Shown here one piece after another: positions 1-63,776 of a DNA stretch of 64,000 bases (positions within the stretch are counted from its first letter, which is position 1; each line of letters starts with the position of its first letter). Where the stretch lies: assembly GCA_964016885.1 (NCBI GenBank), contig OZ024754.1:31806001-31870000 (forward strand), given 5' to 3'. The notes below the pieces were generated by a model that saw only the letters and a list, made by a program, of their open reading frames with translations, made no database searches and had not been told where the DNA came from. The position numbers and the translations under genes are program-made. The stretch is from Eledone cirrhosa (taxonomy: Eukaryota).

Positions 1-3000
1 CCCATCATGTACCGTCATGTACCATCCACACTGTTCTGTCATGTACCATCCACACTGTACCGTCATGTACCACCCACACTGTACCGTCATGTACTACCCA
101 CACTGTACTGTCATGTACCACCCACACTGTACTGTCATCTACCACCCACACTGTGCTGTCATGTACCACCCATCATGTACCGTCATGTACCACCCACACT
201 GTACCGTCATGTACCATCCTCACTGTACTGTCATGTACCATCCATATTGTACTGTCATCTACCACCCACACTGTACCGTCATCTACCACCCACACTGTAC
301 TGTCATGTACCACCCCACTGTACCGTCATGTACCACCTCACTGTACAGTCATGTACCATCCACACTGTACCGTATGTACCACCCATACTGTGCTGTCATG
401 TACCACCCACACTGTACCGTCATGTACCATCCATACTGTACCGTCATGTACCACCCACACTGTACTGTCATGTACCATCCATACTGTACCGTCATGTACC
501 ACCCACACTGTACTGTCATGTACCATCCATACTGTACCGTCATGTACCACCCACACTGTACTGTCATGTACCATCCATACTGTACTGTCATCTACCACCC
601 ACACTGTACCGTCATGTACCACCCACACTGTACTGTCATGTACCACCACACTGTACCGTCATGCACCACCCCACTGTACCGTCATGTACCATCCACACTG
701 TACCGTATGTACCACCCACACTGTACCGTCATGTGCCATCCACACTGTACTGTCATGTACCACCCACACTGTACCGTCATGTACCATTCACACTGTACCG
801 TTATGTACCATCCAGACTGTACCGTCATGTCCCACCCACACTGTACTGTCATGTACCACCCACACTGTACCGTCATGTACCATTCACACTGTACCGTCAT
901 GTACCATCCAGACTGTACCGTCATGTACCACCCACACTGTACTGTCATGTACCACCCACACTGTACCGTCATGTACCATTCACACTCTACTGTCATGTAC
1001 CACCCACACTGCACCGTCATGTACCATTCACACTGTACCCTCATGTACCACCCACACTGTACTGTCATGTCCCACCCACACTGTACCGTCAAGAAACACC
1101 CACACTGTACTATCATGTACCACCCACACAGTACCGTCATGTACCATTCACACTGTACCGTCATGTACCACCCACACTGTACTGTCATGTCCCACCCACA
1201 CTGTACCGTCATGTACCACCCACACTGTACTGTCATGTACCACCCACACTGTACCGTCATGTACCATTCACACTGTACTGTCATGTACCATTCACACTGT
1301 ACTGTCATGTACCATCCACACTGTACTGTCATGTACCACCCACACTGTACCGTCATGTACCATCCACACTGTACTGTCATGTACCACCCACACTGTACTG
1401 TCATGTACCACCCACACTGTACTGTCATGTCCCACCCACACTGTACCGTCATGTACCACCCACACTGTACTGTCATGTACCACCCACACTGTACCGTCAT
1501 GTACCATTCCCACCGTACCGTCATGTACCACCCACATTGTACTGTCATGTCCCACCTACACTGTACTGTCATGTACCATCCACACTGTACTGCCATGTAC
1601 CACCCACACTGTACCGTCATGTACCGTCCACAATGTACCGTCATGTACCATCCACACTGTACTGTCATGTACTACCCGCACTGTACCGTCATGTACCATC
1701 TACACTGTACTGTCATGTACCACCCACACTGTACTGTGGGTTACCAATCACACTGTACTGTCATGTACCATCCACACTGTACCGTCATGTACCACCCAGA
1801 CTGTACTGTCATGTACCATCCATACTGTACCGTCATGCACCACCCACACTGTACCGTCATGCACCACCCACACTGTACCGTCATCTACCATCCACACTGT
1901 ACCGTCATGTACCATCCACACTGTACCGTCATGTACCATCCACACTGTACCGTCATGTACCACCCACATTGTACCGTCATGTACCACCCATCATGTACCG
2001 TCTTGTACCACCCACACTGTACTGTCATGTACCACCCACACTGTACCGTCATATACCACCCATCATGTACCGGCATGTACCATCCTCACTGTACCGTCAT
2101 GTACCACCCACACTGTACTGTCATGTACCATCCACACTGTACTGTAATGTCCCATCCACACTGTACTGTCATGTACCGTCCACACTGTACCGTCATGTAC
2201 CACCCATCATCATGTACCGTCATGTACCATCGACACTGTACTGTCATGTACCACCCATAATGTACCGTCATGTACCATCCACACTGTTCTGTCATGTACT
2301 ACCCACACTGTACTGTCATGTACCACCCACACTGTACCGTCATGTACCACCCAAACTGTACCGTCATGAACCACCCATCATGTACGTCATGTACCATCCA
2401 CACTGTACCGTCATGTACCACACACTGTACCGTCATGTACCACTCACACTGTACCGTCATGTACCACCCACACTGTACAGTCATGTCCCAACCACACTGT
2501 ACCGTCATGTACCATCCACACTGTACTGTCATGTACCATTCACACTGTACTGTCATGTACCATCCATACTGTACCGTCATGTACCACCCACACTGTACAG
2601 TCATGTACCACCCACACTGTACCGTCATGCACCACCCCACTGCACCGTCATGTACCATCCACACCGTACCGTCATGTACCACCCACACTGTACCGTCATG
2701 TGCCATCCACACTGTACCGTCATGTACCATCCACACTGTACCGTCATGTACCACCCACACTGTACCGTCATGTACCACCCACACTGTACCGTCATGTGCC
2801 ATCCACACTGTACCGTCATGTACCATCCACACTGTACCGTCATGTACCACACACTGTACCGTCATGTACCACTCACACTGTACCGTCATGTACCACCCAC
2901 ACTGTACAGTCATGTCCCAACCACACTGTACCGTCATGTACCATCCACACTGTACTGTCATGTACCATTCACACTGTACCGTCATGTACCATCCACACTG

Positions 3001-6000
3001 TACAGTCATGTACCACCCACACTGTACTGTCATGTACCACCCACACTGTACTGTGGGTTACCAATAACACTGTAATGTCATGTACCACCCACACTGTACC
3101 GTCATGCACCACCCACACTGTACCGTCATGTACCATCCACACTGTACTGTGGGTTACCAATCACACTGTACCGCCATGTACCATCCACACTGTACCGTCA
3201 TGTACCACCCACACTGTACCGTCATGTACCACCCACACTGTACTGTGGGTTACCAATCACACTGTACCGTCATGTACCATCCACACTGTACCGTCATGTA
3301 CCACCCACACTGTACCGTCATGTACCACCCACACTGTACCTTCATGTACCATCCACACTGTACTGTCATGTACCATCCACACTGTACTCTCATGTACCAC
3401 CCACACTGTACCGTCATGTACCACACACTGTACCGTCATGTACCACCCACACTGTACAGTCATGTCCCAACCACACTGTACCGTCATGTACCATCCACAC
3501 TGTACTGTCATATACCATCCAAAATGTACCGTCATGTACCATCCACACTGTACTGTCATGTACCATTCACACTGTACCGTCATGTACCACCCACAATGTA
3601 CTGTCATGTACCACCCACACTGTACTGTGGGTTACCAATAACACTGTACTGTCATGTACCACCCACACTGTACCGTCATGCACCACCCACATTGTACCGT
3701 CATGTACCACCCACACTGTACCTTCATGTACCATCCACACTGTACTGTCATGTACCACCCACACTGTACCGTCATGTACCATCCACACTGTACTGTGGGT
3801 TACCAATCACACTGTACCGCCATGTACCATCCACACGGTACCGTCATGCACCACCCACACTGTACCGTCATGTACCACCCACACTGTACTGTCATGTACC
3901 ACCCACACTGTACCGTCATGTACCATCCACACTGTACCGTCATGTACCACCCACACTGTACCGTCATGTACCACCCACACTGTACCTTCATGTACCATCC
4001 ACACTGTACTGTCATGCACCACCCACACTGTACCGTCATGTACCACCCACACTGTACCTTCATGTACCATCCACACTGTACCGTCATGTACCACCCACAC
4101 TGTACTGTCATTTATCACTCACACTGTACCGTCATGTACCACCCACACTGTACCGTCATGTACCACCCATCATGTACCGACATGTACCATCCTCACTGTA
4201 CCGTCATGTACCACCCACACTGTACTGTCATGTACCATCCACACTGTACTGTAATGTCCCATCCACACTGTACCGTCATGTACCGTCCACACTGTACCGT
4301 CATGTACCACCCAGACTGTACTGTCATGTACCACCCATCATGTACCGCCATGTACCATCCACACTGTACCGTCATGTACCACCCATCATGTACCGTCATG
4401 TACCATCCACACTGTTCTGTCATGTACCATCCACACGGTACCGTCATGTACCACCCACACTGTACCGTCATGTACTACCCACACTGTACTGTCATGTACC
4501 ACCCACACTGTACTGTCATCTACCACCCACACTGTGCTGTCATGTACCACCCATCATGTACCGTCATGTACCAGCCACACTGTACCGTCATGTACCACCC
4601 ATCATGTACCGTCATGTACCATCCACACTGTTCTGTCATGTACCATCCCCACTGTACTGTCATGTACCATACATATTGTACTGTCATCTACCACCCACAC
4701 TGTACCGTCATCTACCACCCACACTATACTGTCATGTACCACCCCACTGTACCGTCATGTACCACCCCACTGTACCGTCATGTACCATCCACACTGTACC
4801 GTATGTACCACCCACACTGTACTGTCATGTACCACCCACACTGTACCGTCACGTACCATCCATACTGTACCGTCATGTACCACCCACACTGTACTGTCAT
4901 GTACCATCCATACTGTACCGTCATGTACCACCCACACTGTACTGTCATGTACCATCCATACTGTACCGTCATGTACCACCCACACTGTACTGTTATGTAC
5001 CATCCATACTGTACTGTCATCTACCACCCACACTGTACCGTCATGTACCACCCACACTGTACTGTCATGTACCACCACACTGTACCGTCATGCACCACCC
5101 CACTGTACCCTCATGTACCATCCACACTGTACCGTATGTACCACCCACACTGTACCGTCATGTGCCATCCACACTGTACCGTCATGTACCGTCCACACTA
5201 TACTGTCAGGTCCCACCCACACTGTACCGTCATGTACCACCCACACTGTACTGTCATGTACCACCCACACTGTACCGTCATGTACCATTCACACTGTACC
5301 GTCACGTACCATCCAGACTGTACCGTCATGTCCCACCCACACTGTACTGTCATGTACCACCCACACTGTACCGTCATGTACCATTCACACTGTACCGTCA
5401 TGTACCATCCAGACTGTACCGTCATGTACCACCCACACTGTACTGTCATGTACCACCCACACTGTACCGTCATGTACCATTCACACTCTACTGTCATGTA
5501 CCACCCACACTGCACTGTCATGTACCATTCACACTGTACCCTCATGTACCACCCACACTGTACTGTCATGTCCCACCCACACTGTGCCGTCATGTACCAC
5601 CCACACTGTACTATCATGTACCACCCACACAGTACCGTCATGTACCATTCACACTGTACCGTCATGTACCACCCACACTGTACTGTCATGTCCCACCCAC
5701 ACTGTACCGTCATGTACCACCCACACTGTACTGTCATGTACCACCCACACTGTACCGTCATGTACCATTCACACTGTACTGTAATGTACCATTCACACTG
5801 TACTGTCATGTACCATCCACACTGTACTGTCATGTACCACCCACACTGTACCGTCATGTACCATCCACACTGTACTGTCATGTACCACCCACACTGTACT
5901 GTCATGTACCACCCACACTGTACTGTCATGTCCCACCCACACTGTACCGTCATGTACCACCCACACTGTACTGTCATGTACCACCCACACTGTGCCGTCA

Positions 6001-8790
6001 TGTACCATTCCCACCGTACCTTCATGTACCACCCACACTGTACTGTCATGTCCCACCCACACTGTCCTGTCATGTACCATCCACACTGTACTGTCATGTA
6101 CCACCTACACTGTACCGTCATGTACCATCCACAATGTACCGTCATGTACCATCCACACTGTACTGTCATGTACCACCCACACTGTACTGTCATGTACTAC
6201 CCACACTGTACCGTCATGTACCATCTACACTGTACTGTCATGTACCACCCACACTGTACTGTGGGTTACCAATCACACTGTACTGTCATGTACCACCCAC
6301 ACTGTACCGTCATGTACCATTCACACTGTACCGTCATGTACCATCCAGACTGTACCGTCATGTCCCACCCACACTGTACTGTCATGTACCACCCACACTG
6401 TACCGTCATGTACCATCCAGACTGTACCGTCATGTACCACCCACACTGTACTGTCATGTACCACCCACACTGTACCGTCATGTACCATTCACACTCTACT
6501 GTCATGTACCACCCACACTGCACCGTCATGTACCATTCACACTGTACCCTCATGTACCACCCACACTGTACTGTCATGTCCCACCCACACTGTACCGTCA
6601 TGTACCAGCCACACTGTACTATCATGTACCACCCACACAGTACCGTCATGTACCATTCACACTGTACCGTCATGTACCACCCACACTGTACTGTCATGTC
6701 CCACCCACACTGTACCGTCATGTACCACCCACACTGTACTGTCATGTACCACCCACACTGTACCGTCATGTACCATTCACACTGTACTGTCATGTACCAT
6801 TCACACTGTACTGTCATGTACCATCCACACTGTACTGTCATGTACCACCCACACTGTACCGTCATGTACCATCCACACTGTACTGTCATGTACCACCCAC
6901 ACTGTACTGTCATGTACCACCCACACTGTACTGTCATGTCCCACCCACACTGTACCGTCATGTACCACCCACACTATACTGTCATGTACCACCCACACTG
7001 TACCGTCATGTACCATTCCCACCGTACCTTCATGTACCACCCACACTGTACTGTCATGTCCCACCCACACTGTACTGTCATGTACCATCCACACTGTACT
7101 GTCATGTACCACCTACACTGTACCGTCATGTACCATCCACAATGTACCGTCATGTACCATCCACACTGTACTGTCATGTACCACCCACACTGTACTGTCA
7201 TGTACTACCCACACTGTACCGTCATGTACCATCTACACTGTACTGTCATGTACCACCCACACTGTACTGTGGGTTACCAATCACACTGTACTGTCATGTA
7301 CCATCCACACTGTACCGTCATGTACCACCCAGACTGTACTGTCATGTACCATCCACACTGTACCGTCATGCACCACCCACACTGTACCGTCATGCACCAC
7401 CCACACTGTACCGTCATCTACCATCCACACTGTACCGTCACGTACCACCCACATTGTACCGTCATGTACCACCCATCATGTACCGTCATGTACCACCCAC
7501 ACTGTACTGCCATGTACCACCAACACTGTACCGTCATATACCACCCATCATGTACCGGCATGTACCATCCTCACTGTACTGTCATGTACCACCCACACTG
7601 TACTGTCATGTACCATCCACACTGTACTGTAATGTCCCATCCACACTGTACTGTCATGTACCGTCCACACTGTACCGTCATGTACCACCCATCATCATGT
7701 ACCGTCATGTACCATCGACACTGTACTGTCATGTACCACCCATAATGTACCGTCATGTACCATCCACACTGTTCTGTCATGTACTACCCACACTGTACTG
7801 TCATGTACCACCCACACTGTACCGTCATGTACCACCCAAACTGTACTGTCATGAACCACCCATCATGTACTGTCATGTACCATTCACACTGTACTGTCAT
7901 GTACCATTCACACTGTACCGTCCTGTACCACCCACACTGTACCGTCATGTACCACCCACCATGTACGTCATGTACCATCCACACTGTACCGTCATATACC
8001 ACACAGCTTGTACCGTCATGTACCACCCACTCTGTACTGTCATGTCCCACCCACACTGTACCGTCATGTACCACCCACACTGTACTGTCATGTACCACCC
8101 ACACTGTACCGTCATGCACCACCCCACTGCACCGTCATGTACCATCCACACTGTACCGTCATGTACCACCCACACTGTACCGTTATGTGCCATCCACACT
8201 GTACCGTCATGTACCATCCACACTGTACCGTCATGTACCACCCACACTGTACCGTCATGTACCACCCACACTGTACCGTCATGTACCATCCACACTGTAC
8301 CGTCATTTACCACACACTGTACCGTCATGTACCACTCACACTGTACCGTCATGTACCACCCACACTGTACAGTCATGTCCCACCCACACTGTACCGTCAT
8401 GTACCATCCACACTGTACTGTCATGTACCATCCAAAATGTACCGTCATGTACCATCCACACTGTACTGTCATGTACCACCCACACTGTACTGTCATGTAC
8501 CACCCACACTGTACCGTAATGTACCATTCACACTGTACTGTCATGTACCACCCACACTGTACCGTCATGTACCACCCACACTCTACCGTCATGTACCATG
8601 CACACTGTACCGTCATGTACCATGCACACTGTACCGCCATGTACCACCCACGCTGTACTGTAATGTCCCATCCATACTGTACCGTCATGTACCACCCACA
8701 CTGTACCGTCATCTACCACCCACACTGTACCCTCATGTACCACCCACACTGTACCGTCATGTACCACCCACACTGTACCGTCATGTACCG
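1..8790. repeat. 24-bp tandem satellite (consensus CATGTACCAYCCACACTGTACYGT), roughly 365 units, runs off the left edge of the window
   Basis: Unit read directly. The 8-aa periodicity of the ORF track (HVPPTLYR / MYHPHCTV / SCTTHTVP) equals 24 nt. The array ends abruptly at about 8790 (…gtcatgtaccg|tctttattg). Confidence 0.97.
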
Positions 8791-33538: not shown

Positions 33539-36500
33539 TTCAATATGTACATGTATAGAGCCGTAACTTCAATATGTACATGTATGGAGCCGTAACTTCA
33601 ATATGTACATGTATGGAGCCGTAACTTCAATATGTACATGTATGGTGCCGTAACTTCTATATGTACATGTATGGTGCCGTAACTTCAATATGTACATGTA
33701 TGGAGCCGTAACTTCAATATGTACATGTATGGAGCCGTAACTTCAATATGTACATGTATGGTGCCGTAACTTCTATATGTACATGTATGGTGCCGTAACT
33801 TCTATATGTACATGTATGGAGCCGTAACTTCAATATGTACATGTATGGTGCCGTAACTTCTATATGTATATGTATGGAGCCGTAACTTCATTATGTACAT
33901 GTATGGAGCCGTAACTTCAATATGTACATGTATAGAGCCGTAACTTCAATATGTACATGTATGGAGCCGTAACTTCTATATGTACATGTATGGAGCCGTA
34001 ACTTCAATATGTACATGTATGGTGCCGTAACTTCTATATGTACATGTATGGAGCCGTAACTTCAATATGTACATGTATGGTGCCGTAACTTCAATATGTA
34101 CATGTATGGAGCCGTAACTTCAATATGTACATGTATGGTGCCGTAACTTCAATATGTACATGTATGGAGCCGTAACTTCTATATGTACATGTATGGAGCC
34201 GTAACTTCAATATGTACATGTATGGTGCCGTAACTTCTATATGTACATGTATGGAGCCGTAACTTCAATATGTACATGTATGGTGCCGTAACTTCTATAT
34301 GTACATGTATGGAGCCGTAACTTCAATATGTACATGTATGGAGCCGTAACTTCAATATGTACATGTATGGAGCCGTAACTTCAATATGTATATGTATGGT
34401 GCCGTAACTTCAATATGTACATGTATGGAGCCGTAACTTCAATATGTACATGTATGGAGCCGTAACTTCAATATGTATATGTATGGAGCCGTAACTTCAA
34501 TATGTACATGTATGGAGCCGTAACTTCAATATGTACATGTATGGTGCCGTAACTTCAATAGGTACATGTATGGAGCCGTAACTTCTATATGTACATGTAT
34601 GGAGCCGTAACTTCAATATGTACATGTATGGAGCCGTAACTTCTATATGTACATGTATGGTGCCGTAACTTCATTATGTACATGTATGGAGCCGTAACTT
34701 CAATATGTACATGTATGGTGCCGTAACTTCACTATGTATATGTATGGTGCCGTAACTTCAATATGTACATGTATGGAGCCGTAACTTCAATATGTACATG
34801 TATGGTGCCGTAACTTCAATATGTACATGTATGGTGCCGTAACTTCTATATGTACATGTATGGAGCCGTAACTTCAATATGTACATGTATGGAGCCGTAA
34901 CTTCAATATGTACATGTATGGTGCCGTAACTTCAATATGTATATGTATGGAGCCGTAACTTCAATATGTATATGTATGGAGCCGTAACTTCAATATGTAC
35001 ATGTATGGTGCCGTAACTTCAATATGTACATGTATGGAGCCGTAACTTCTATATGTACATGTATGGAGCCGTAACTTCAATATGTACATGTATGGAGCCG
35101 TAACTTCAATATGTACATGTATAGAGCCGTAACTTCAATATGTACATGTATGGAGCCGTAACTTCAATATGTACATGTATGGAGCCGTAACTTCAATATG
35201 TACATGTATGGTGCCGTAACTTCAATATGTACATGTATGGAGCCGTAACTTCAATATGTACATGTATGGTGCCGTAACTTCAATATGTACATGTATGGTG
35301 CCGTAACTTCAATATGTACATGTATGGTGCCGTAACTTCAATATGTACATGTATGGTGCCGTAACTTCAATATGTACATGTATGGAGCCGTAACTTCAAT
35401 ATGTACATGTATGGTGCCGTAACTTCAATATGTACATGTATGGAGCCGTAACTTCAATATGTACATGTATGGTGCCGTAACTTCAATATGTACATGTATG
35501 GAGCCGTAACTTCAATATGTACATGTATGGTGCCGTAACTTCAATATGTACATGTATGGAGCCGTAACTTCAATATGTACATGTATGGTGCCGTAACTTC
35601 AATATGTACATGTATGGAGCCGTAACTTCAATATGTACATGTATGGTGCCGTAACTTCAATATGTACATGTATGGTGCCGTAACTTCAATATGTACATGT
35701 ATGGTGCCGTAACTTCATTATGTACATGTATGGTGCCGTAACTTCAATATGTACATGTATGGAGCCGTAACTTCTATATGTACATGTATGGAGCCGTAAC
35801 TTCAATATGTACATGTATGGAGCCGTAACTTCTATATGTACATGTATGGTGCCGTAACTTCATTATGTACATGTATGGTGCCGTAACTTCAATATGTACA
35901 TGTATGGTGCCGTAACTTCTATATGTACATGTATGGAGCCGTAACTTCAATATGTATATGTATGGAGCCGTAACTTCAATATGTACATGTATGGTGCCGT
36001 AACTTCATTATGTACATGTATGGTGCCGTAACTTCAATATGTACATGTATGGAGCCGTAACTTCTATATGTACATGTATGGAGCCGTAACTTCAATATGT
36101 ACATGTATGGAGCCGTAACTTCTATATGTACATGTATGGTGCCGTAACTTCATTATGTACATGTATGGTGCCGTAACTTCAATATGTACATGTATGGAGC
36201 CGTAACTTCTATATGTACATGTATGGAGCCGTAACTTCACTATGTACATGTATGGAGCCGTAACTTCAATATGTACATGTATGGAGCCGTAACTTCTATA
36301 TGTACATGTATGGAGCCGTAACTTCAATATGTATATGTATGGAGCCGTAACTTCAATATGTACATGTATGGTGCCGTAACTTCTATATGTACATGTATGG
36401 AGCCGTAACTTCAATATGTATATGTATGGAGCCGTAACTTCAATATGTACATGTATGGTGCCGTAACTTCTATATGTACATGTATGGAGCCGTAACTTCA

Positions 36501-39500
36501 ATATGTACATGTATGGAGCCGTAACTTCATTATGTACATGTATGGAGCCGTAACTTCTATATGTACATGTATGGAGCCGTAACTTCAATATGTACATGTA
36601 TGGAGCCGTAACTTCTATATGTACATGTATGGTGCCGTAACTTCAATATGTACATGTATGGAGCCGTAACTTCAATATGTACATGTATGGTGCCGTAACT
36701 TCAATATGTACATGTATGGAGCCGTAACTTCAATATGTACATGTATGGAGCCGTAACTTCAATATGTACATGTATGGAGCCGTAACTTCAATATGTACAT
36801 GTATGGAGCCGTAACTTCAATATGTACATGTATGGAGCCGTAACTTCAATATGTACATGTATGGAGCCGTAACTTCTATATGTACATGTATGGAGCCGTA
36901 ACTTCTATATGTACATGTATGGAGCCGTAACTTCAATATGTACATGTATGGAGCCGTAACTTCTATATGTACATGTATGGAGCCGTAACTTCAATATGTA
37001 CATGTATGGAGCCGTAACTTCTATATGTACATGTATGGAGCCGTAACTTCTATATGTACATGTATGGAGCCGTAACTTCAATATGTACATGTATGGAGCC
37101 GTAACTTCAATATGTACATGTATGGAGCCGTAACTTCTATATGTACATGTATGGAGCCGTAACTTCACTATGTACATGTATGGAGCCGTAACTTCAATAT
37201 GTATATGTATGGAGCCGTAACTTCAATATGTATATGTATGGTGCCGTAACTTCAATATGTACATGTATGGTGCCGTAACTTCAATATGTACATGTATGGA
37301 GCCGTAACTTCAATATGTACATGTATGGAGCCGTAACTTCACTATGTACATGTATGGAGCCGTAACTTCACTATGTACATGTATGGAGCCGTAACTTCAC
37401 TATGTACATGTATGGAGCCGTAACTTCAATATGTATATGTATGGAGCCGTAACTTCAATATGTATATGTATGGTGCCGTAACTTCAATATGTATATGTAT
37501 GGAGCCGTAACTTCAATATGTACATGTATGGTGCCGTAACTTCAATATGTACATGTATGGTGCCGTAACTTCAATATGTATATGTATGGTGCCGTAACTT
37601 CAATATGTATATGTATGGTGCCGTAACTTCAATATGTACATGTATGGAGCCGTAACTTCAATATGTATATGTATGGAGCCGTAACTTCTATATGTACATG
37701 TATGGTGCCGTAACTTCAATATGTACATGTATGGAGCCGTAACTTCAATATGTACATGTATGGTGCCGTAACTTCAATATGTACATGTATGGTGCCGTAA
37801 CTTCACTATGTATATGTATGGAGCCGTAACTTCAATATGTACATGTATGGTGCCGTAACTTCACTATGTATATGTATGGAGCCGTAACTTCAATATGTAT
37901 ATGTATGGAGCCGTAACTTCAATATGTACATGTATGGAGCCGTAACTTCAATATGTACATGTATGGAGCCGTAACTTCAATATGTACATGTATGGAGCCG
38001 TAACTTCAATATGTACATGTATGGTGCCGTAACTTCAATATGTACATGTATGGTGCCGTAACTTCACTATGTATATGTATGGAGCCGTAACTTCAATATG
38101 TACATGTATGGTGCCGTAACTTCACTATGTATATGTATGGAGCCGTAACTTCAATATGTATATGTATGGAGCCGTAACTTCAATATGTACATGTATGGAG
38201 CCGTAACTTCAATATGTACATGTATGGAGCCGTAACTTCAATATGTATATGTATGGAGCCGTAACTTCAATATGTACATGTATGGAGCCGTAACTTCAAT
38301 ATGTACATGTATGGAGCCGTAACTTCAATATGTACATGTATGGAGCCGTAACTTCAATATGTACATGTATGGTGCCGTAACTTCAATATGTACATGTATG
38401 GAGCCGTAACTTCAATATGTACATGTATGGAGCCGTAACTTCTATATGTATATGTATGGTGCCGTAACTTCTATATGTACATGTATGGAGCCGTAACTTC
38501 AATATGTACATGTATGGAGCCGTAACTTCTATATGTACATGTATGGAGCCGTAACTTCAATATGTACATGTATGGAGCCGTAACTTCAATATGTACATGT
38601 ATGGAGCCGTAACTTCAATATGTACATGTATGGAGCCGTAACTTCAATATGTACATGTATGGAGCCGTAACTTCAATATGTACATGTATGGAGCCGTAAC
38701 TTCAATATGTACATGTATGGAGCCGTAACTTCAATATGTACATGTATGGAGCCGTAACTTCAATATGTACATGTATGGAGCCGTAACTTCAATATGTACA
38801 TGTATGGTGCCGTAACTTCAATATGTATATGTATGGAGCCGTAACTTCAATATGTACATGTATGGTGCCGTAACTTCAATATGTACATGTATGGTGCCGT
38901 AACTTCAATATGTATATGTATGGTGCCGTAACTTCAATATGTACATGTATGGAGCCGTAACTTCACTATGTACATGTATGGAGCCGTAACTTCAATATGT
39001 ACATGTATGGAGCCGTAACTTCAATATGTACATGTATGGAGCCGTAACTTCAATATGTACATGTATGGTGCCGTAACTTCAATATGTACATGTATGGTGC
39101 CGTAACTTCAATATGTATATGTATGGTGCCGTAACTTCAATATGTACATGTATGGAGCCGTAACTTCACTATGTACATGTATGGAGCCGTAACTTCAATA
39201 TGTACATGTATGGAGCCGTAACTTCAATATGTACATGTATGGAGCCGTAACTTCAATATGTACATGTATGGTGCCGTAACTTCAATATGTACATGTATGG
39301 TGCCGTAACTTCAATATGTATATGTATGGTGCCGTAACTTCAATATGTACATGTATGGAGCCGTAACTTCACTATGTACATGTATGGAGCCGTAACTTCA
39401 ATATGTACATGTATGGAGCCGTAACTTCAATATGTACATGTATGGAGCCGTAACTTCAATATGTACATGTATGGTGCCGTAACTTCAATATGTATATGTA

Positions 39501-42500
39501 TGGTGCCGTAACTTCAATATGTACATGTATGGAGCCGTAACTTCAATATGTACATGTATGGAGCCGTAACTTCAATATGTACATGTATGGTGCCGTAACT
39601 TCAATATGTATATGTATGGTGCCGTAACTTCAATATGTACATGTATGGAGCCGTAACTTCACTATGTACATGTATGGTGCCGTAACTTCAATATGTACAT
39701 GTATGGTGCCGTAACTTCAATATGTATATGTATGGTGCCGTAACTTCAATATGTACATGTATGGAGCCGTAACTTCAATATGTACATGTATGGAGCCGTA
39801 ACTTCAATATGTACATGTATGGTGCCGTAACTTCAATATGTATATGTATGGAGCCGTAACTTCAATATGTACATGTATGGTGCCGTAACTTCAATATGTA
39901 CATGTATGGTGCCGTAACTTCAATATGTATATGTATGGAGCCGTAACTTCAATATGTACATGTATGGAGCCGTAACTTCAATATGTACATGTATGGAGCC
40001 GTAACTTCAATATGTACATGTATGGAGCCGTAACTTCAATATGTACATGTATGGAGCCGTAACTTCAATATGTACATGTATGGAGCCGTAACTTCACTAT
40101 GTACATGTATGGAGCCGTAACTTCAATGTGTACATGTATGGAGCCGTAACTTCAATATGTACATGTATGGAGCCGTAACTTCAATATGTACATGTATGGT
40201 GCCGTAACTTCAATATGTACATGTATGGAGCCGTAACTTCAATATGTACATGTATGTAGCCGTAACTTCAATATGTACATGTATGGAGCCGTAACTTCAC
40301 TATGTACATGTATGGAGCCGTAACTTCAATATGTACATGTATGGTGCCGTAACTTCTATATGTACATGTATGGTGCCGTAACTTCAATATGTACATGTAT
40401 GGAGCCTTAACTTCAATATGTACATGTATGGTGCCGTAACTTCAATATGTACATGTATGGTGCCGTAACTTCAATATGTACATGTATGGTGCCGTAACTT
40501 CAATATGTACATGTATGGTGCCGTAACTTCACTATGTACATGTATGGAGCCGTAACTTCTATATCTACATGTATGGTGCCGTAACTTCAATATGTACATG
40601 TATGGAGCCGTAACTTCACTATGTACATGTATGGTGCCGTAACTTCAATATGTACATGTATGGTGCCGTAACTTCTATATGTACATGTATGGTGCCGTAA
40701 CTTCAATATGTACATGTATGGAGCCTTAACTTCAATATGTACATGTATGGTGCCGTAACTTCAATATGTACATGTATGGTGCCGTAACTTCAATATGTAC
40801 ATGTATGGTGCCGTAACTTCAATATGTACATGTATGGTGCCGTAACTTCAATATGTACATGTATGGTGCCGTAACTTCAATATGTACATGTATGGTGCCG
40901 TAACTTCAATATGTACATGTATGGTGCCGTAACTTCAATATGTACATGTATGGAGCCGTAACTTCACTATGTACATGTATAGAGCCGTAACTTCTATATG
41001 TACATGTATGGTGCCGTAACTTCAATATGTACATGTATGGAGCCGTAACTTCAATATGTACATGTATGGAGCCGTAACTTCAATATGTATATGTATGGAG
41101 CCGTAACTTCAATATGTACATGTATGGAGCCGTAACTTCAATATGTACATGTATGGTGCCGTAACTTCAATATGTATATGTATGGTGCCGTAACTTCAAT
41201 ATGTACATGTATGGAGCCGTAACTTCAATATGTACATGTATGGAGCCGTAACTTCAATATGTACATGTATGGTGCCGTAACTTCAATATGTACATGTATG
41301 GTGCCGTAACTTCAATATGTACATGTATGGAGCCGTAACTTCACTATGTACATGTATGGTGCCGTAACTTCAATATGTACATGTATGGTGCCGTAACTTC
41401 AATATGTACATGTATGGTGCCGTAACTTCAATATGTACATGTATGGAGCCGTAACTTCACTATGTACATGTATAGAGCCGTAACTTCTATATGTACATGT
41501 ATGGTGCCGTAACTTCAATATGTACATGTATGGAGCCGTAACTTCAATATGTACATGTATAGAGCCGTAACTTCAATATGTACATGTATGGTGCCGTAAC
41601 TTCAATATGTACATGTATGGTGCCGTAACTTCAATATGTACATGTATGGAGCCGTAACTTCAATATGTACATGTATGGAGCCGTAACTTCAATATGTACA
41701 TGTATGGAGCCGTAACTTCTATATGTACATGTATGGAGCCGTAACTTCAATATGTACATGTATGGTGCCGTAACTTCAATATGTATATGTATGGAGCCGT
41801 AACTTCAATATGTACATGTATGGAGCCGTAACTTCAATATGTACATGTATGGAGCCGTAACTTCTATATGTACATGTATGGAGCCGTAACTTCAATATGT
41901 ACATGTATGGTGCCGTAACTTCTATATGTACATGTATGGTGCCGTAACTTCAATATGTATATGTATGGAGCCGTAACTTCAATATGTACATGTATGGAGC
42001 CGTAACTTCAATATGTACATGTATGGAGCCGTAACTTCAATATGTACATGTATGGAGCCGTAACTTCTATATGTACATGTATGGAGCCGTAACTTCAATA
42101 TGTATATGTATGGAGCCGTAACTTCAATATGTACATGTATGGAGCCGTAACTTCTATATGTATATGTATGGAGCCGTAACTTCAATATGTACATGTATGG
42201 AGCCGTAACTTCAATATGTACATGTATGGTGCCGTAACTTCTATATGTATATGTATAGAGCCGTAACTTCTATATGTACATGTATGGAGCCGTAACTTCT
42301 ATATGTACATGTATGGTGCCGTAACTTCTATATGTACATGTATGGAGCCGTAACTTCTATATGTACATGTATGGAGCCGTAACTTCAATATGTACATGTA
42401 TGGAGCCGTAACTTCTATATGTACATGTATGGAGCCGTAACTTCTATATGTACATGTATGGAGCCGTAACTTCAATATGTACATGTATGGAGCCGTAACT

Positions 42501-43330
42501 TCTATATGTACATGTATGGAGCCGTAACTTCAATATGTACATGTATGGTGCCGTAACTTCTATATGTACATGTATGGAGCCGTAACTTCAATATGTACAT
42601 GTATGGTGCCGTAACTTCAATATGTACATGTATGGAGCCGTAACTTCAATATGTACATGTATGGAGCCGTAACTTCAATATGTATATGTATGGAGCCGTA
42701 ACTTCAATATGTACATGTATGGAGCCGTAACTTCTATATGTACATGTATGGTGCCGTAACTTCTATATGTACATGTATGGAGCCGTAACTTCTATATGTA
42801 CATGTATGGAGCCGTAACTTCTATATGTACATGTATGGTGCCGTAACTTCTATATGTACATGTATGGAGCCGTAACTTCAATATGTACATGTATGGTGCC
42901 GTAACTTCAATATGTACATGTATGGAGCCGTAACTTCTATATGTACATGTATGGTGCCGTAACTTCTATATGTACATGTATGGAGCCGTAACTTCTATAT
43001 GTACATGTATGGTGCCGTAACTTCAATATGTACATGTATGGTGCCGTAACTTCAATATGTACATGTATGGAGCCGTAACTTCTATATGTACATGTATGGT
43101 GCCGTAACTTCTATATGTACATGTATGGAGCCGTAACTTCTATATGTACATGTATGGTGCCGTAACTTCTATATGTACATGTATGGAGCCGTAACTTCAA
43201 TATGTACATGTATGGTGCCGTAACTTCAATATGTACATGTATGGAGCCGTAACTTCAATATGTACATGTATGGTGCCGTAACTTCTATATGTACATGTAT
43301 GGTGCCGTAACTTCAATATGTATATGTATG
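33539..43330. repeat. 29-bp tandem satellite (consensus AATATGTACATGTATGGWGCCGTAACTTC), about 337 units
   Basis: Unit read directly. ORF periodicity of 29 aa equals 3 units. No obvious indels; variation is nearly confined to a few positions. Confidence 0.97.
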
Positions 43331-49494: not shown

Positions 49495-50512
<1,018 letters not shown>

Positions 50513-57069: not shown

Positions 57070-60000
57070 TTTCTTTATTTGCCACAAGGGCGCAACAAGA
57101 AAAGGGGACAATACAAAGAGATGCCGGGGATTTTACATACAGTCGTGTAAAAAATATAAAAACAAACAATTTCAACAATCGAAATCCCCAATAGGGGGGA
57201 GGCGCCACAAATGGGTTGTTTAATACCCCGTCGATAGAACAACCCTCAACTCCAGGAGCGTGTTGTGCAAGTGCTCCCTTCTTCCTTTTGCTCTCTTCCT
57301 CAACCTACAGGCTTATAAACAGAGAAGGCCCAATCACTCGGGCCATTTTCGCTTCATTCACCGACCTTTCAGTAAATTTACTGGGGTGCAGTGCCTCTCT
57401 CTCCACCCTGATTCTCTTTCTAAAGTGATACTTAAAGAAGGGAATCAATTGTTGTCCGGAGAGAAAGGCATCTGTCCTCAGTCCTCCCAACCTCGTCCAC
57501 CATATAACTTCTTTCACCATAGCCACCGTACAGAGGTAAACCGCCTCTCTTTCGTTTTTGAAAGAGTCTGGCGGTTTGATCCTTACTATGGACTCGGCAG
57601 TCAACTGGATTTGTCCCATACGCGACAGCAGTTGTTCTGCATAGTTCCACAGGTCGCTTACGCCCGGGCTGTGTACAATTGCGTGCAGAACTGTTTCAAT
57701 GTCCCGCGCACATCTTGGACACGTCCTCTTGGAAGGATCCCTGCCAGGGCGTCCGTGCCTGTAGATCTTGTCACGAACCGGTAGAGCTCCTCGGTAGCAC
57801 TGCCAGGCCAGGGACCTCTGGAAGTTGTCCATAGGTCCCGGGCGGAAAGTCCTACCAAACAGACTGGTGAGCTCATCGTCTTCGACGCCCAGAGTCTCTC
57901 CGAGCACGTCGTCGCCCTTGTAACGTACAATCCCTCTATAGAATGTCGAAGTGGAGTCTCCACTGATTGCTGCGCCCGCTTGCCAGAGGACTGTGAGCGC
58001 CTGAGCGCATTCAATGTGCCAGGCGCCCATCGTTTTCGGTCTTTTCTTCACCCAGGACTGCAGCTCCGTTAGCGAGACGAGCTGTGGGAAAGCCTGTCTC
58101 ACAAACGGTGCCCACACCGGTTGGGGGTCGGTGAGGAATACCTGGAGATTCCGCAGCCTCAGCGCATGTTTGCGCATCATCAGCCACGGCATTCCCAGCC
58201 CTCCGTTGGAAGGGTGCTGACAGCAGACGGATCTCCTCACCAGCGGAGCCTGCTTCTTCCACAGAAACTGGAAGAGTATGCGTTCCATCTTGGCGAGGTG
58301 TTCACGGGGACAAGGCACGACAGTCAAGCGGTAGTAGATGACGGACGCTATGAAAGTGTTCGCCACCTCCGCTCGACCTTTCAAGGACAGTTTGCACTCT
58401 GCCCACTTCTGAGTGAGTGCAAACACCTTGGCCGTGACCTCGTTCCAGTTTTTCTCCACCTGGAGGTCTGGACCGAACCAGACCCCGAGCAATTTCACCG
58501 GTCCGTCCAGCGTCCAACGACGCTGTCGGATGTCATCGGTTTGCCTCTCCACGTACCGAGTTGCAAACCGACAGACTTGTCTAGGTTTAGTTTTGCTCCC
58601 GTCAGCGTTTCGTATTCTTTCAGTAAGTTGCCGATCACCCCGATTTCCGAGGTGCTCGACACCATTACCGTCACGTCGTCGGCATCAGCCGACGCCGCTT
58701 TGCGCAGTCCCGGTTCTAGGGGGATGCCCTGCAACAGCTCCAATTTCCGCAGTAGTGGCTCTAGAGTCAATACATACAGAATGGAGGAGAGAGGGCATCC
58801 CTGTCGAATGGAACGCGTGATTGCGAACGGCTCCGATAGGTAGCCGTTCACCTTGACCCTCGAGCAGATGCTGGTGTGCATCACCTCGATCCATCCTCTG
58901 AACACGGGACCGAAACCGGCCGCCTTGAGAACCGCTTCCAAGTATCGATGGTCGACCCTATCGAATGCCTTAGACTGATCCAAGTTGATCAGAGTCCCAC
59001 CGAAGCCGGGTTTACTACCCACCCTCTCTATGATGTATCGCATGAGGTGGAGGTTGTCGTGTATGGACCTGGTCGGGATTGCACACGTTTGCGCTTTCCC
59101 TACCAGGTTCTCGACGACAAGCGCCAACCTCGTCGCTAGCACCTTGGCCAAAATCTTTAACTCTGTGTTGAGCAGAGTTATGGGCCTGAAGTTGTTAATT
59201 TCGTCCCCCTTGTTCTCGTCTTTCCTGATCAGCGTTACTACGCCCTTGCCTGCAGAACTGGGAATTCTCCCGTTCTGCTGCCAATTGCAGTAGACGGCTT
59301 CGAGGACGCCAGAGAACAAGTCCGGCATGCCTATGTAAAATTCGTAGGGTAGACCATCTAGACCGGGTGACTTGCGTTTCCCGCAGCGGCCCAGAGCGTA
59401 CCGTATCTCAGTGTCCGTGATCGGTCTTTCGCAGAACTCGGCGTCCGTGTTCGAGAGACGCGGCAGGCCGTCGAGGTATGAACTAAAGTCCATTGCCCCG
59501 TTCGGCTCACCGTCATTCTGCTCAAACAGTCGCGCAAAGTGCCGCTGAAAGGCCGCGCACATTTGCTTGGGGTCAAGTAGCACGCGTCCGTTTTGGTCTT
59601 TCAAAGATCGAATCGTGGACTTGTTGCCACTTTTTGCCTCCGCCACTCGGACCCAGCTGACAGCTTTCGCTCCTTCATTTCCTAGAGCACGTGTTTTGCT
59701 TCTGACCACGCAGCCTTCGTGTTTCGCATCGAAGAACTGGTCCAGTGCCGTTCTCGACGCTAACACTCTAGCCGCGTTGCCACTTCTAAGTGCCTCCTCT
59801 ACCTTGGCTACTAGTTCTCTTTCTATTCTGTTTTTCTCTAAGGCTAACTCTCTGCTATACCCTATCGATTCTATTCTAATTGCTTTCTTGAGAGAGTACC
59901 ACCATCTATTGTTGACGATGGCTCCCGTTAACTGTTCCTTGACTAGTCTACTTATCCGTTCACTGTAAGCTTTACGTGCCGGCAACGACACGTTCAGCTT

Positions 60001-60529
60001 CCAGTATCCGGGACCCTGTCTATGTATTCTATCACGGTTGACTAAGCAGACGACTAACTTGTGATCTGAATAGGCAACCATGTGCATTCGTGGACAGCTT
60101 AACATCTCCTTGTCCCTTTCTCTAATGAAGAACCTATCTAAATACGATCTAGATGTCCCACTGTGGTGCAGTCGGGAAATCCAGTCGATACCTATCGGCC
60201 AGTTGGAATTGGCCGATTAAAGTTTTGAGGCTGTTGCACCCCGCTCTACTGGGACATGCTCCCACATAGTCCCATCGTGCATCTAGGATACCATTCCAGT
60301 CCCCCACTAAAAGTAAGGAGCGAGACGTTCCCAGAAAAGACTCTAGACGCTTAAAGAAATATGGCCGTGATTGCGATTGCCCGGTCGGGGCATAAACGAC
60401 AACCAGTCTGAAGGCTCCACCTCCGATACTGTTCACGTCTAGGACTACCAGTCTACCCTCCGGATCCAAGTGTACTAGCTGTACTCCGACGTCCAGGTTC
60501 TTCCGAAACATAACAGCCACTTCACCTCC

Positions 60530-60530
<1 letters not shown>
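57069..60530 (-). mobile_element. 5'-truncated L1/Tx1-clade LINE (ORF2: APE, RT, CCHC), inactivated
   Basis: APE motifs (VVVYAP, GDWN, SDH, PGYWKLN). RT motifs (KSPGLDGL, FRPITLLN, LDQSKAFDRV, RQGCPLS), with YADD degraded to DADD. C-terminal CPRC…H. At least two frameshifts. AATAAA at the 3' end, then (CT)n. Confidence 0.95.
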
Positions 60531-60621
<91 letters not shown>

Positions 60622-60646
60622 CGTTTGCTTTGTTACTTCTGTTTAC

Positions 60647-60696
<50 letters not shown>

Positions 60697-60720
60697 TATA
60701 TATACATATATATATATATA

Positions 60721-61742
60721 GGTCGTGTGCAAAAGCACATGTATTAGGCTTGCGACAGATCAGTCTTAAGATATTATCTTAGGAGAAGTGATTTTAATTT
60801 CTGGGTGCCTACCGAAGATCACAGAAAATTGATTACTTCACTAATAATTATTTTATAAATAGTTGTTCCATAATTAATTAATTATTTCATTAGTATAACA
60901 TCCCTTGTGAAACAGGTTTATGCTTTGAAGTTCCGCCCGATCTGCTGAAAAGGTTTGAATTTTGAAATTTAAACTTGTCTAGGCACCAGGCAGTTGCCAT
61001 TTTACGTCTGTAAGTATAGATTTAATATTTAATATTCTCTAGATCGATACAGACGGACTATATGTACTTGAATTAAGGTATTTCTATCTGGCTAAAAAAT
61101 TATTGTCATTTTGCAAAAAAAACACAGTAGTGTTGATCATATATTTTTTTAAATTATAATGTAATGCTCAGAAGTATTTTCTTAGAGCTTAATATTTGTA
61201 ACTGACTACTAAACTGAAATTAATCTGCTCCTACGGTTGAGCTGAATTCATAATCACATATTCACGGCTGCTATTTCTAGCACCATGGATATGAGCCAGA
61301 ATGCTGAGAAGGTCGTGTGCAAAAGCACATGTATTAGGCTTGCGACAGATCAGTCTTAAGATATTATCTTAGGAGAAGTGATTTTAATTTCTGGGTGCCT
61401 ACCGAAGATCACAGAAAATTGATTACTTCACTAATAATTATTTTATAAATAATTGTTCCGTAATTAATTAATTATTTCATTAGTATAACATCCCTTGTGA
61501 AACAGGTTTATGTTTTGAAGTTCCGCCCGATCTGCTAAAAAGGTTTGAATTTTGAAATTTAAACTTGTCTAGGCACCAGGCAGTTGCCATTTTACGTCTG
61601 TAAGTATAGATTTAATATTTAATATTCTCTAGATCGATACAGACGGACTATATGTACTTGAATTAAGGTATTTCTATCTGGCTAAAAAATTATTGTCATT
61701 TTGCAAAAAAAAACACAGTAGTGTTGATCATATATTTTTTAA

Positions 61743-61750
<8 letters not shown>
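60721..61750 (+). mobile_element. Partial-tandem element (about 440-bp direct repeats, 590-bp period) between (TA)n tracts, one large hammerhead-like motif per repeat
   Basis: GGTCGTGTGCAAAAGCAC…AAATTATAAT at 60721-61160 and 61311-61750. Confidence 0.88.
60804..60987 (+). ncRNA. Expanded hammerhead-like motif (core CCGAAGA, GUC site); second copy 61394-61577
   Basis: ggtgccta-CCGAAGA(60812-18)-[90-nt domain II]-GAAA(60909-12)-caggttta…taaacttg-TC-taggcacc. Perfect 8-bp stem I and 8-bp stem III. Confidence 0.72.
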
Positions 61751-61821
<71 letters not shown>

Positions 61822-61824
<3 letters not shown>

Positions 61825-61949
61825 CGAAGGAAATGTGGTAAGGAACCAGGTGGACCATAACGCACCAAAGTACTCAATACTTGGGGTAGTAGAGTGGGTA
61901 ATAGGAACCAGTAAGACCCCGACGGCTGAGCTCAAGCCGTTTCGACGGC
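61822..61949 (-). mobile_element. Family B element, truncated within HHR stem II and joined to the UGT upstream flank
   Basis: Matches 44685-44811. It ends …GCCGTTTCGACGGC, which overlaps by CGGC with sequence homologous to 26990-26993. Confidence 0.8.
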
Positions 61950-62107
61950 ATTGCGCAACCATAGTCGAAAGTTCCTGACACGGTATCTCCACCATTCACG
62001 ATTTTCCATTGTTTCTGTCAAATGTATAGCCGCTCCAGCGTAAGAATTAATGGTTGTGTGGTTGTTGTGGAACACAAACCTATAAGTTAAAACATACAAC
62101 TTAAAGG

Positions 62108-62237: not shown

Positions 62238-62258
62238 GACACAACTTTGTAGAAAACA

Positions 62259-63776
62259 ATGAAGAGTTTATTTATCACAACTCTGGTATTATGCACTGTT
62301 ATCCCTTTAAGGACAGTTAGCAGTGAAAATATTTTATATCTAGCATGGCCTTTTTATAGTCACATAAATCCGATGATTTCTATAGCAAACGAATTAACAA
62401 AATATGGACATAAGAACTATTTTATTCTGAGTAAAAAACTCACTGAAACTTTCCACAACGAAAAATACATAATTTCCATTCCAATGGATGACATACCAGA
62501 AATTGAAAAAATACGATCTGACGCACAGAAGCAGACTGAAACATCAAAACGTATTTATATGATGCGAAACAGATTGAAGAGATTTCCTATACTGTGTGAT
62601 AGATTTTTAAACAATGAAAAGTGGATCGATTCACTGAGAGCCGTCAACGCCAGTTTAGTTGTTATCAACGGGTTGTTTTTTACGAATTGTCTTACAATTA
62701 TTGCTTATCAACTCTCAATACCGTTTGTTATCACAGGATCTGAGATATTTCCCAGTATTCATCGTATTCCCTGGCTCCCCAGTTTTTTCCCAAATAGCAT
62801 TATCGGATTCACGGACAAGATGACATATTTAGAAAAGATAATAACTACTTTGTTTTCTATTGTAGTGTATAGCATTCCTCCCATAGGATCAACTCCACAC
62901 AGTATCAAAACATACGCTCAAGACAAACCTGATATCTCTTTGATAGATTTACTGCACCAGGCACAATTTTTTCTGATTGAAAAAGATATACTTTTAGATT
63001 TTCCTATACCCCAACTTCCAAACGTAAGATATGTTGGTGGTCTCGTTACAAAACATTCGCTACCCTTGAAGGGAGAATTACTGGAATTTGTAAATGCTTC
63101 TAAGAACGGAATAGTCCTTGTATCATTTGGCAGTAATATCGATGATTTCCCCGATGCTCAATTAGAAAAACTACAAAATGCTTTTAAACAAATAAAATAT
63201 GATGTTGTGTGGAGACAGAAGAAAACATCATTTTCTCATAAGAATATCTATCTCAGTAACTGGATACCACAAAATGACCTGCTTGGACATCCAAAAACTA
63301 AATTGTTTGTTACTCATTGTGGAAATAGTGGTCAGTTTGAAGCTTTGTTCCATGGTGTACCAATGCTAGGAATTCCCTTATTTGGTGATCAACATTATAA
63401 TGCACGTAGAATGACCACCAAAGGATATGGTGTTTCTCTAGACATAGAAAACTTTACTAGTGAGGAATTAATAGAAAAAATAAATGAATTGATTGAAAAT
63501 GATAAATATTCTAAGAACATTAAAAGAGCAAGTGAAATATTTCACTCTCGTCCCGAACATCCAGCAAAGAAATCAGCTCGCCATATTGATCATATTTTAA
63601 AGTATGGTGGAACATATCTAAAATCTCCATGTCAAGAGAGTCCATTGTATGAATTTCTCATGATCGATGTGTTGGTTCCTATATTTGCAGTGACATTTCT
63701 ATTGATATATTTCATATATCTGATTGGAAAAAAATGTTTATCTGTTTGTTGTAAGAAGAAGAGCAAAATTGATTAA
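62259..63776 (+). CDS. UDP-glucuronosyl/UDP-glycosyltransferase, copy 3, 505 aa, intronless CDS
   Basis: Same architecture and UDPGT signature as copy 1. It differs at about a dozen residues, all in the N-terminal half. Confidence 0.96.
   Translation: MKSLFITTLVLCTVIPLRTVSSENILYLAWPFYSHINPMISIANELTKYGHKNYFILSKKLTETFHNEKYIISIPMDDIPEIEKIRSDAQKQTETSKRIYMMRNRLKRFPILCDRFLNNEKWIDSLRAVNASLVVINGLFFTNCLTIIAYQLSIPFVITGSEIFPSIHRIPWLPSFFPNSIIGFTDKMTYLEKIITTLFSIVVYSIPPIGSTPHSIKTYAQDKPDISLIDLLHQAQFFLIEKDILLDFPIPQLPNVRYVGGLVTKHSLPLKGELLEFVNASKNGIVLVSFGSNIDDFPDAQLEKLQNAFKQIKYDVVWRQKKTSFSHKNIYLSNWIPQNDLLGHPKTKLFVTHCGNSGQFEALFHGVPMLGIPLFGDQHYNARRMTTKGYGVSLDIENFTSEELIEKINELIENDKYSKNIKRASEIFHSRPEHPAKKSARHIDHILKYGGTYLKSPCQESPLYEFLMIDVLVPIFAVTFLLIYFIYLIGKKCLSVCCKKKSKID

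Follow-up and report, generated by a model that had tools for sequence, protein, structure and literature searches.

A window of 64,000 nt of Eledone cirrhosa genomic DNA contains a tandemly repeated 590-nt unit in which an initial annotation, made from the sequence alone, recognized a giant variant of the hammerhead ribozyme, one per unit, in an architecture resembling that of a retrozyme. The locus raises three linked questions: whether the motif is a genuine hammerhead, what kind of element carries it, and whether this copy still cleaves. The features discussed below are as follows, in coordinates of the window.

60695..60720, unstranded: (TA)n target remnant on the 5' side, from the sequence
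60721..61748, plus strand: one-armed, 5'-truncated retrozyme insertion, a whole 590-nt unit and about 438 nt of the next
60804..60987, plus strand: type I hammerhead motif, copy 1, predicted cut after 60979
60804-60811 and 60980-60987, plus strand: stem I, 8 Watson-Crick pairs
60812-60818, plus strand: core, with C3, C4 and G8
60819..60908, plus strand: domain II, 90 nt, a basal U.U followed by weak pairs
60909-60912 and 60977-60979, plus strand: GAAA and GUC, from the sequence
60912..60978, plus strand: long stem III, about 27 pairs with a 13-nt loop, from alignment and fold
60980..61569, plus strand: predicted cut-to-cut monomer of 590 nt, from motif geometry; its existence as RNA is a prediction
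61394..61577, plus strand: type I hammerhead motif, copy 2, predicted cut after 61569
61749..61823, unstranded: (TA)n array on the 3' side, from the sequence

The element is a single young insertion of a dispersed non-coding repeat family. It is set between (TA)n arrays, ends at the "short" 3' end of its family, and has no ATG frame of at least 37 aa anywhere in 60721..61748; the two unit copies differ at 4 of 420 compared bases. The second motif does lie exactly 590 nt beyond the first, but the two direct repeats of the initial annotation amount to 1.74 units (60721 to about 61748) rather than two whole ones. Stem I is a helix of eight Watson-Crick pairs, as described, domain II measures 90 nt, and C occupies core position 4. 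The eight pairs reported for stem III are likewise present, although one of them is G.U (60915.60975) and the helix is to that extent not perfect. What had been taken for a loop III of about 49 nt is mostly helix: the arms 60912-60938 and 60952-60978 of the ~27-pair stem, read off the alignment, form 23 of the 27 pairs in copy 1.

Against the consensus core (C3 U4 G5 A6 N7 G8 A9, G12 A13 A14 A15.1, U16.1 H17), the C at position 4 is the sole mismatch of the window copy. At the base of stem II, where positions 10.1 and 11.1 should pair, the window lineage has U.U. The weakness of basal stem II was named at the outset as the main doubt about the motif, and this was justified, since, besides the U.U base, pairing is found in just 67% of stem II cells. 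A relaxed type I descriptor (stem I at least 8, stem III at least 8) matches just these two places in the window, and matched none of 1500 dinucleotide shuffles of the unit and nothing in 4 shuffled windows. Folding of the motif scores z = -4.1 and that of the predicted 590-nt monomer z = -3.85; the free fold of the window copy forms stems I and III, in the helix order of type I. No loop 1-loop 2 tertiary contact was recognized by eye. The expectation that standard searches would miss the motif is borne out for Rfam, because no Rfam hammerhead matches the window unit at E <= 10; none matches the canonical sister family described next, either.

A DNA similarity search, in which 40 of 931 candidates were scored, and exact-word matching placed the unit in a large family. 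Three exact words have 206, 206 and 256 matches in the 3.0-Gb genome, 206 being the figure for the core word, and the 3' word of a sister family, F, has 478. We compared 145 distinct sites of subfamilies A-E and 60 of family F. The tree of 31 cut-to-cut monomers (6 of 37, being partial or rearranged, were excluded) has the shape of a ladder, in the order F, D, short C, C, B, A, with an offshoot bearing A6U nested within A, along which identity to the window monomer drops from 97% to 73%. The direction of change along the ladder we infer, because the root is a midpoint root. Family F, with a unit of 546-557 nt and 73% identity, has the consensus hammerhead core, closed by G10.1-C11.1. Domain II is 35-44 nt long in F (about 37), 60-64 nt in the intermediate subfamilies, and 90 nt in the window subfamily, and the base of stem II passes from G-C through A-U to U.U. 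Subfamily A adds U4C, and the nested offshoot, which comprises 12 of the sites compared, adds A6U. A and B differ at 21 of 590 columns.

Conservation and covariation of stems I and III among the copies had been set in advance as the check by which the motif should be judged, and the stems are indeed conserved and covary. Pairing was counted in 31 hand-picked copies. In stem I, 99.6% of cells pair, and three of the eight pairs are changed on both sides. Core pair 3-8 is U-A in 16 copies, C-G in 14, and neither in 1 (30/31 paired); sliding the partner as a control lowers pairing from 90% to 17-52%. By eye, 98 of 100 listed cores, out of 206, keep a Watson-Crick 3-8 pair (47 C-G, 51 U-A). Pair 10.1-11.1 is G-C in 8, A-U in 6 and something else in 17, and RNAalifold, unaided, recovered stems I and III but not stem II. 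Position 7 varies among A, G and U and position 17 between C and A, both being free positions of the hammerhead consensus as given in PMC3088659. The counts represent few events on the tree rather than 31 independent ones, and double-changed pairs show no excess over a shuffle control that ignores relatedness and is not taken as a probability (421 of 500 shuffles as high). The subfamily groups were defined by the core, so core conservation within groups is circular and was not counted.

The most telling event, and a recent one, in these alignments is the compensated switch of pair 3-8 between A and B. This pair changes between C-G and U-A twice on the tree, once on the branch to the window copy, and both of its sides are among the 21 differences between A and B, a coincidence with a chance of about 0.0012. 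Covariation across subfamilies, the canonical core of the sister family, and the Penelope-type footprints described below all support the hammerhead identity and retrozyme-like architecture first proposed for the locus, and the hammerhead lineage is almost certainly real.

Insertion anatomy indicates how copies spread. Of 179 chains, 144 terminate within unit 420-449 or 500-509, two narrow zones, and almost always do so in (TA)n; the 5' ends vary, truncation being at the 5' side. Two opposed arms occur at 57 of 125 sites, and where there are exactly two, a long end is paired with a short end in 52 of 56 cases (30 of 30 in F). The family thereby has the insertion anatomy of Penelope, with partial tandems, an inverted 5' copy, a tail on one side and a (TA)n target, and the long/short footprint is as described for Penelope-like elements (PLEs) in PMC8557442. 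Two coding GIY-YIG families in the same genome have the same long and short ends, with tails of about 55 and 45 nt. PLEs have been proposed as mobilisers of animal retrozymes (PMC7229834; 10.64898/2026.07.22.740005), and mobilisation of the Penelope type is very probable here, judging from these footprints. The family also has the hallmarks of a non-LTR retrozyme, a non-coding tandem unit with one type I hammerhead per unit, dispersed in many copies. The RT and GIY-YIG ORF of an autonomous PLE is absent from the unit, and no shared ORF lies upstream. A profile search of about 320 loci found no autonomous partner PLE sharing unit sequence, and none emerged from the 3' ends that follow GIY-YIG frames or from 29 loci belonging to a young PLE family.

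At one locus (L206), a unit abuts, with no (TA)n between them, a young coding PLE whose copies are 98-100% identical. Along L206:1299-3512 (G000:C2:208915500 onward), the retrozyme arm is followed by 9/10 microhomology, and then by a 74-nt inverted piece and the PLE arm. The junction, which may record a template switch or a later deletion, we treat as a lead, because both arms are short-ended and a microhomology deletion explains it equally well. The PLE in question has a CxxC motif before GIY-YIG, which by the description in PMC8557442 is of Neptune/Nematis type.

At three other loci (L149, L008 and L148), units are joined at the 5' end, without a microsatellite, to other elements: a PLE endonuclease end, a second hammerhead family, or another repeat. 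The PLE endonuclease end presumably belongs to a Hydra-like clade.

We favor, with a probability of roughly 0.6, the reading that the window element is a non-autonomous retrozyme whose RNA is copied into (TA)n by a PLE reverse transcriptase and endonuclease, and whose oversized, covarying hammerhead is predicted to be a slow cutter in this copy. Tandem units would be transcribed, and the hammerhead would cut after GUC, at 60979 and 61569, in a minority of molecules, as core covariation and a pile-up of 5' ends suggest. As the anatomy of the copies shows, reverse transcriptase primes at two fixed sites some 60 nt from each other, in many cases from either side of a break, and runs back through one or more units. 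Most passes cross the cut site, the template being an uncut multimer or a religated circle.

A rather unlikely alternative is that the ribozyme is a relic, active in an F-type ancestor and dead in the window subfamily, which would move as uncut multimeric RNA with neither monomer nor circle. The window motif combines U4C, a U.U base of stem II, and a 90-nt domain II, and the soundness of its ribozyme is doubtful by predicted folding. The fold in hammerhead register lies 9.1 kcal/mol above the minimum in the window copy vs 6.1-6.5 in F, a difference that is only suggestive because the energy model omits core contacts, and several subfamilies are predicted to favor a slipped stem II that traps G12 and A13. 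Three of the 21 A/B differences are fixed within the 7-nt core. The A6U offshoot amplified, and a sound core is not needed for movement, since that offshoot spread. Against a relic, the compensated 3-8 switch falls on the short B-to-A branch, along which stems I and III are unchanged. Each lesion has some precedent. As described in PMC3088659, U4C in a viroid is weak in vitro and sufficient in vivo, U10.1.U11.1 is a weak but working natural variant, and a change at A6 is known as A6C, at under 0.1 per min. U.U at the base of stem II is reported for axolotl HHR_Amex2 (PMC7229834), and U3-A8 for Cercyon PLEs (PMC4209133). Counting against continued cleavage, 8 of 9 predicted retrozymes of Xenopus are reported without in vitro cleavage (10.64898/2026.07.22.740005). 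We lean toward the view that the window subfamily still cleaves.

Possible traces of cutting bear on the same choice. In a sample chosen only by the 3' word (66 sites, 91 chains), five 5' ends lie at unit 260-262, immediately beyond the predicted cut, where 0.46 were expected; the bin 260-279 ranks first of 29, and locus L074 folds back exactly on unit 260-261. By subfamily, exact-site ends number 5/78 in A, 0/38 in the A6U group, 1/36 in B and 0/28 in C; their concentration in A, 5/78 vs 1/102 in A2, B and C, argues against a relic, with small numbers and an uncertain assignment of L088. In F, whose core is the better one, none of 100 ends is at the predicted cut (0.8 expected), and 3 are in the next 25 nt (5.1 expected). 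The binomial significance of the pile-up is overstated, because equally strong hot spots occur elsewhere in A-C, at unit 339, 374 and 395 (6-8 ends each). Position 260 begins with TA, a possible microhomology with the target. An excess of ends at 263-284 is found also in the A6U offshoot (5/38), and therefore stalling of reverse transcriptase before the long helix can explain part of the signal.

A further point in favor of a relic is that most passes, 59 of 71 in subfamily A, cross the predicted cut, and two such sites were read through when the window insertion itself was made. At these points the template was therefore unbroken, either as an uncut multimer or as a religated circle. Divergence between arms, 1.71% for units of the same rank and 1.84-1.98% for units of different rank (p = 0.34; p = 0.79 in F), fits both. 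At locus L007, a deletion in the last unit of both arms is absent from the upstream unit, a pattern that leans toward a multimer at that site. That a monomer circle served as template we hold to be slightly less than an even chance. Divergent RT-PCR would be no proof of a circle, because linear tandem read-through contains the same junction.

It is very improbable that the repeat is instead the pseudo-LTR, or 3' end, of an autonomous PLE, seen as 5'-truncated copies. Its footprints are the same as those of coding PLEs, Xenopus retrozymes are described as related to pLTRs (10.64898/2026.07.22.740005), and L149 holds a unit fused, in the same orientation, to a PLE endonuclease end. However, that junction falls in mid-unit, the unit profile has no match in the PLE loci searched, and chains that extend upstream enter another unit, up to 5.5 units in all. 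Of 75 one-armed A-D sites, moreover, 55 have a microsatellite as their 5' flank, and the flanks of the remaining 20 are unrelated and differ from one another. A satellite or rolling-circle repeat arising at the DNA level, in which the resemblance to a hammerhead is due to chance, is disfavored and most improbable: copies are tandem, AT-rich sequence readily forms hairpins, and substitutions lack the strand bias expected of an edited RNA step (among rare variants, A>G 62 vs T>C 81, p = 0.36), but the family is dispersed and 5'-truncated, with two fixed 3' ends and paired long and short arms, and the covariation, the canonical sister core and the shuffle controls all stand against chance.

On the strength of these sequence comparisons, the element is probably a Penelope-mobilised non-LTR retrozyme of a known animal class, with an oversized and eroding hammerhead. 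It resembles the metazoan non-LTR retrozymes described in PMC7229834 and 10.64898/2026.07.22.740005 in its non-coding tandem units, one type I hammerhead in each, low GC content, and coexistence with PLEs; its 590 nt fall within the 51-972 bp retrozyme range given in the latter, and the window lineage shares the U.U base of stem II with HHR_Amex2 of PMC7229834. In contrast, the published animal retrozyme hammerheads, as described there, have a helix III of 1-2 bp and a helix II of about 4 bp, where here stem III has ~27 pairs and domain II reaches 90 nt. The unit is also longer than the 170-400 nt circles described for invertebrate retrozymes, and, unlike in published retrozymes, U3-A8, U4C and A6U are fixed in successive subfamilies.

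Comparison with PLEs, as described in PMC4209133 and PMC8557442, yields likenesses in 5' truncation, partial tandems, an inverted 5' copy, a one-ended tail and (TA)n targets. Core covariation to U3-A8 is likewise described for Cercyon PLEs (PMC4209133), and PLE hammerheads of fungi and protists are reported to have a large helix III (PMC4209133, PMC8557442). Unlike PLEs, the unit has no ORF, and its tail is about 57-62 nt (82 in F) vs the 30-40 bp reported in these two papers, where metazoan PLE hammerheads are described as minimal and dimer-dependent; stem III here is long enough for a monomer fold. Natural core variants, the change from C3-G8 to U3-A8 among them, are described singly in PMC3088659, whereas here several occur together, as an ordered series in one mobile lineage. 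A literature search, mainly of the main texts of open papers, found no cephalopod retrozyme and no comparable long-stem animal hammerhead. New, as far as the literature searched goes, are the long stem III, a domain II reaching 90 nt, and the succession of core changes within one mobile lineage.

That series, comprising canonical F, U3-A8 in D, C and B, U4C in A, and the A6U offshoot, is a natural allelic series every member of which has spread, and it therefore allows cleavage rate to be compared directly with mobility and insertion anatomy. The role of the hammerhead in PLEs and retrozymes is described as unclear in PMC8557442. One speculative and on balance improbable proposal is that the lineage trades ribozyme speed for mobility: a larger domain II and an eroded core would slow cutting, partly cut multimers would serve as templates and imprint the cut site on the 5' ends of new insertions, the canonical family would circularise fully and leave no mark, and the A6U offshoot would move almost without catalysis. 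If so, the genome would bear witness to in vivo cleavage by an animal hammerhead that is among the largest and most degenerate, and would offer a natural experiment on the need of such elements for any ribozyme. In practical terms, Rfam overlooks animal hammerheads whose stems II and III are long, even those with a canonical core.

Several minor observations concern the wider family and the unit itself. Distant superfamily members (L301, L262, L212, L298, L194, L012, L257) exhibit further covariation in stem I and a stem III of 7 to about 27 pairs, and one of them, L298, shares the C at position 4. Another family, which has the 5' strand of stem I and a canonical core word in common with the unit, was considered as a relative and rejected, as it lacks the GAAA/stem I partner and any similarity to the unit. 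Loci L031-L050 belong to a long repeat family, 95-99% identical, that came up through a fortuitous match of 15 nt; several of its copies lie close to the start of a contig. Within the unit, a block at about 545-570 (window 61266-61290) is conserved from A through F and is a possible candidate for an internal promoter; D and F have a TATAAA-like word there, which A and B carry in altered form.

Other hammerheads lie in the same surroundings. The minus strand of window 61823-61950 holds the 3' half of another repeat that targets (TA)n and bears a hammerhead, with GAAAC, a 7-bp stem III hairpin, GUC and a stem I strand; fuller copies of it (L008, L240), often in inverted pairs, have a U3-A8 core and a domain II of about 56 nt. 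Many minimal PLE-type hammerheads with a short palindromic stem III occur together with inverted PLE ends in the same (TA)n arrays, examples being L099, L212, L141, L201 and window 49799-50098. Just upstream of the element, on the minus strand (57305-60649), is a broken LINE with endonuclease, RT and zf-RVT frames, and 500 nt downstream, on the plus strand (62253-63776), is a 507-aa intronless UDP-glucuronosyltransferase frame (PF00201). The window also contains two long minisatellites, at 8-8789 and 33539-43330, with periods of 24 and 29.
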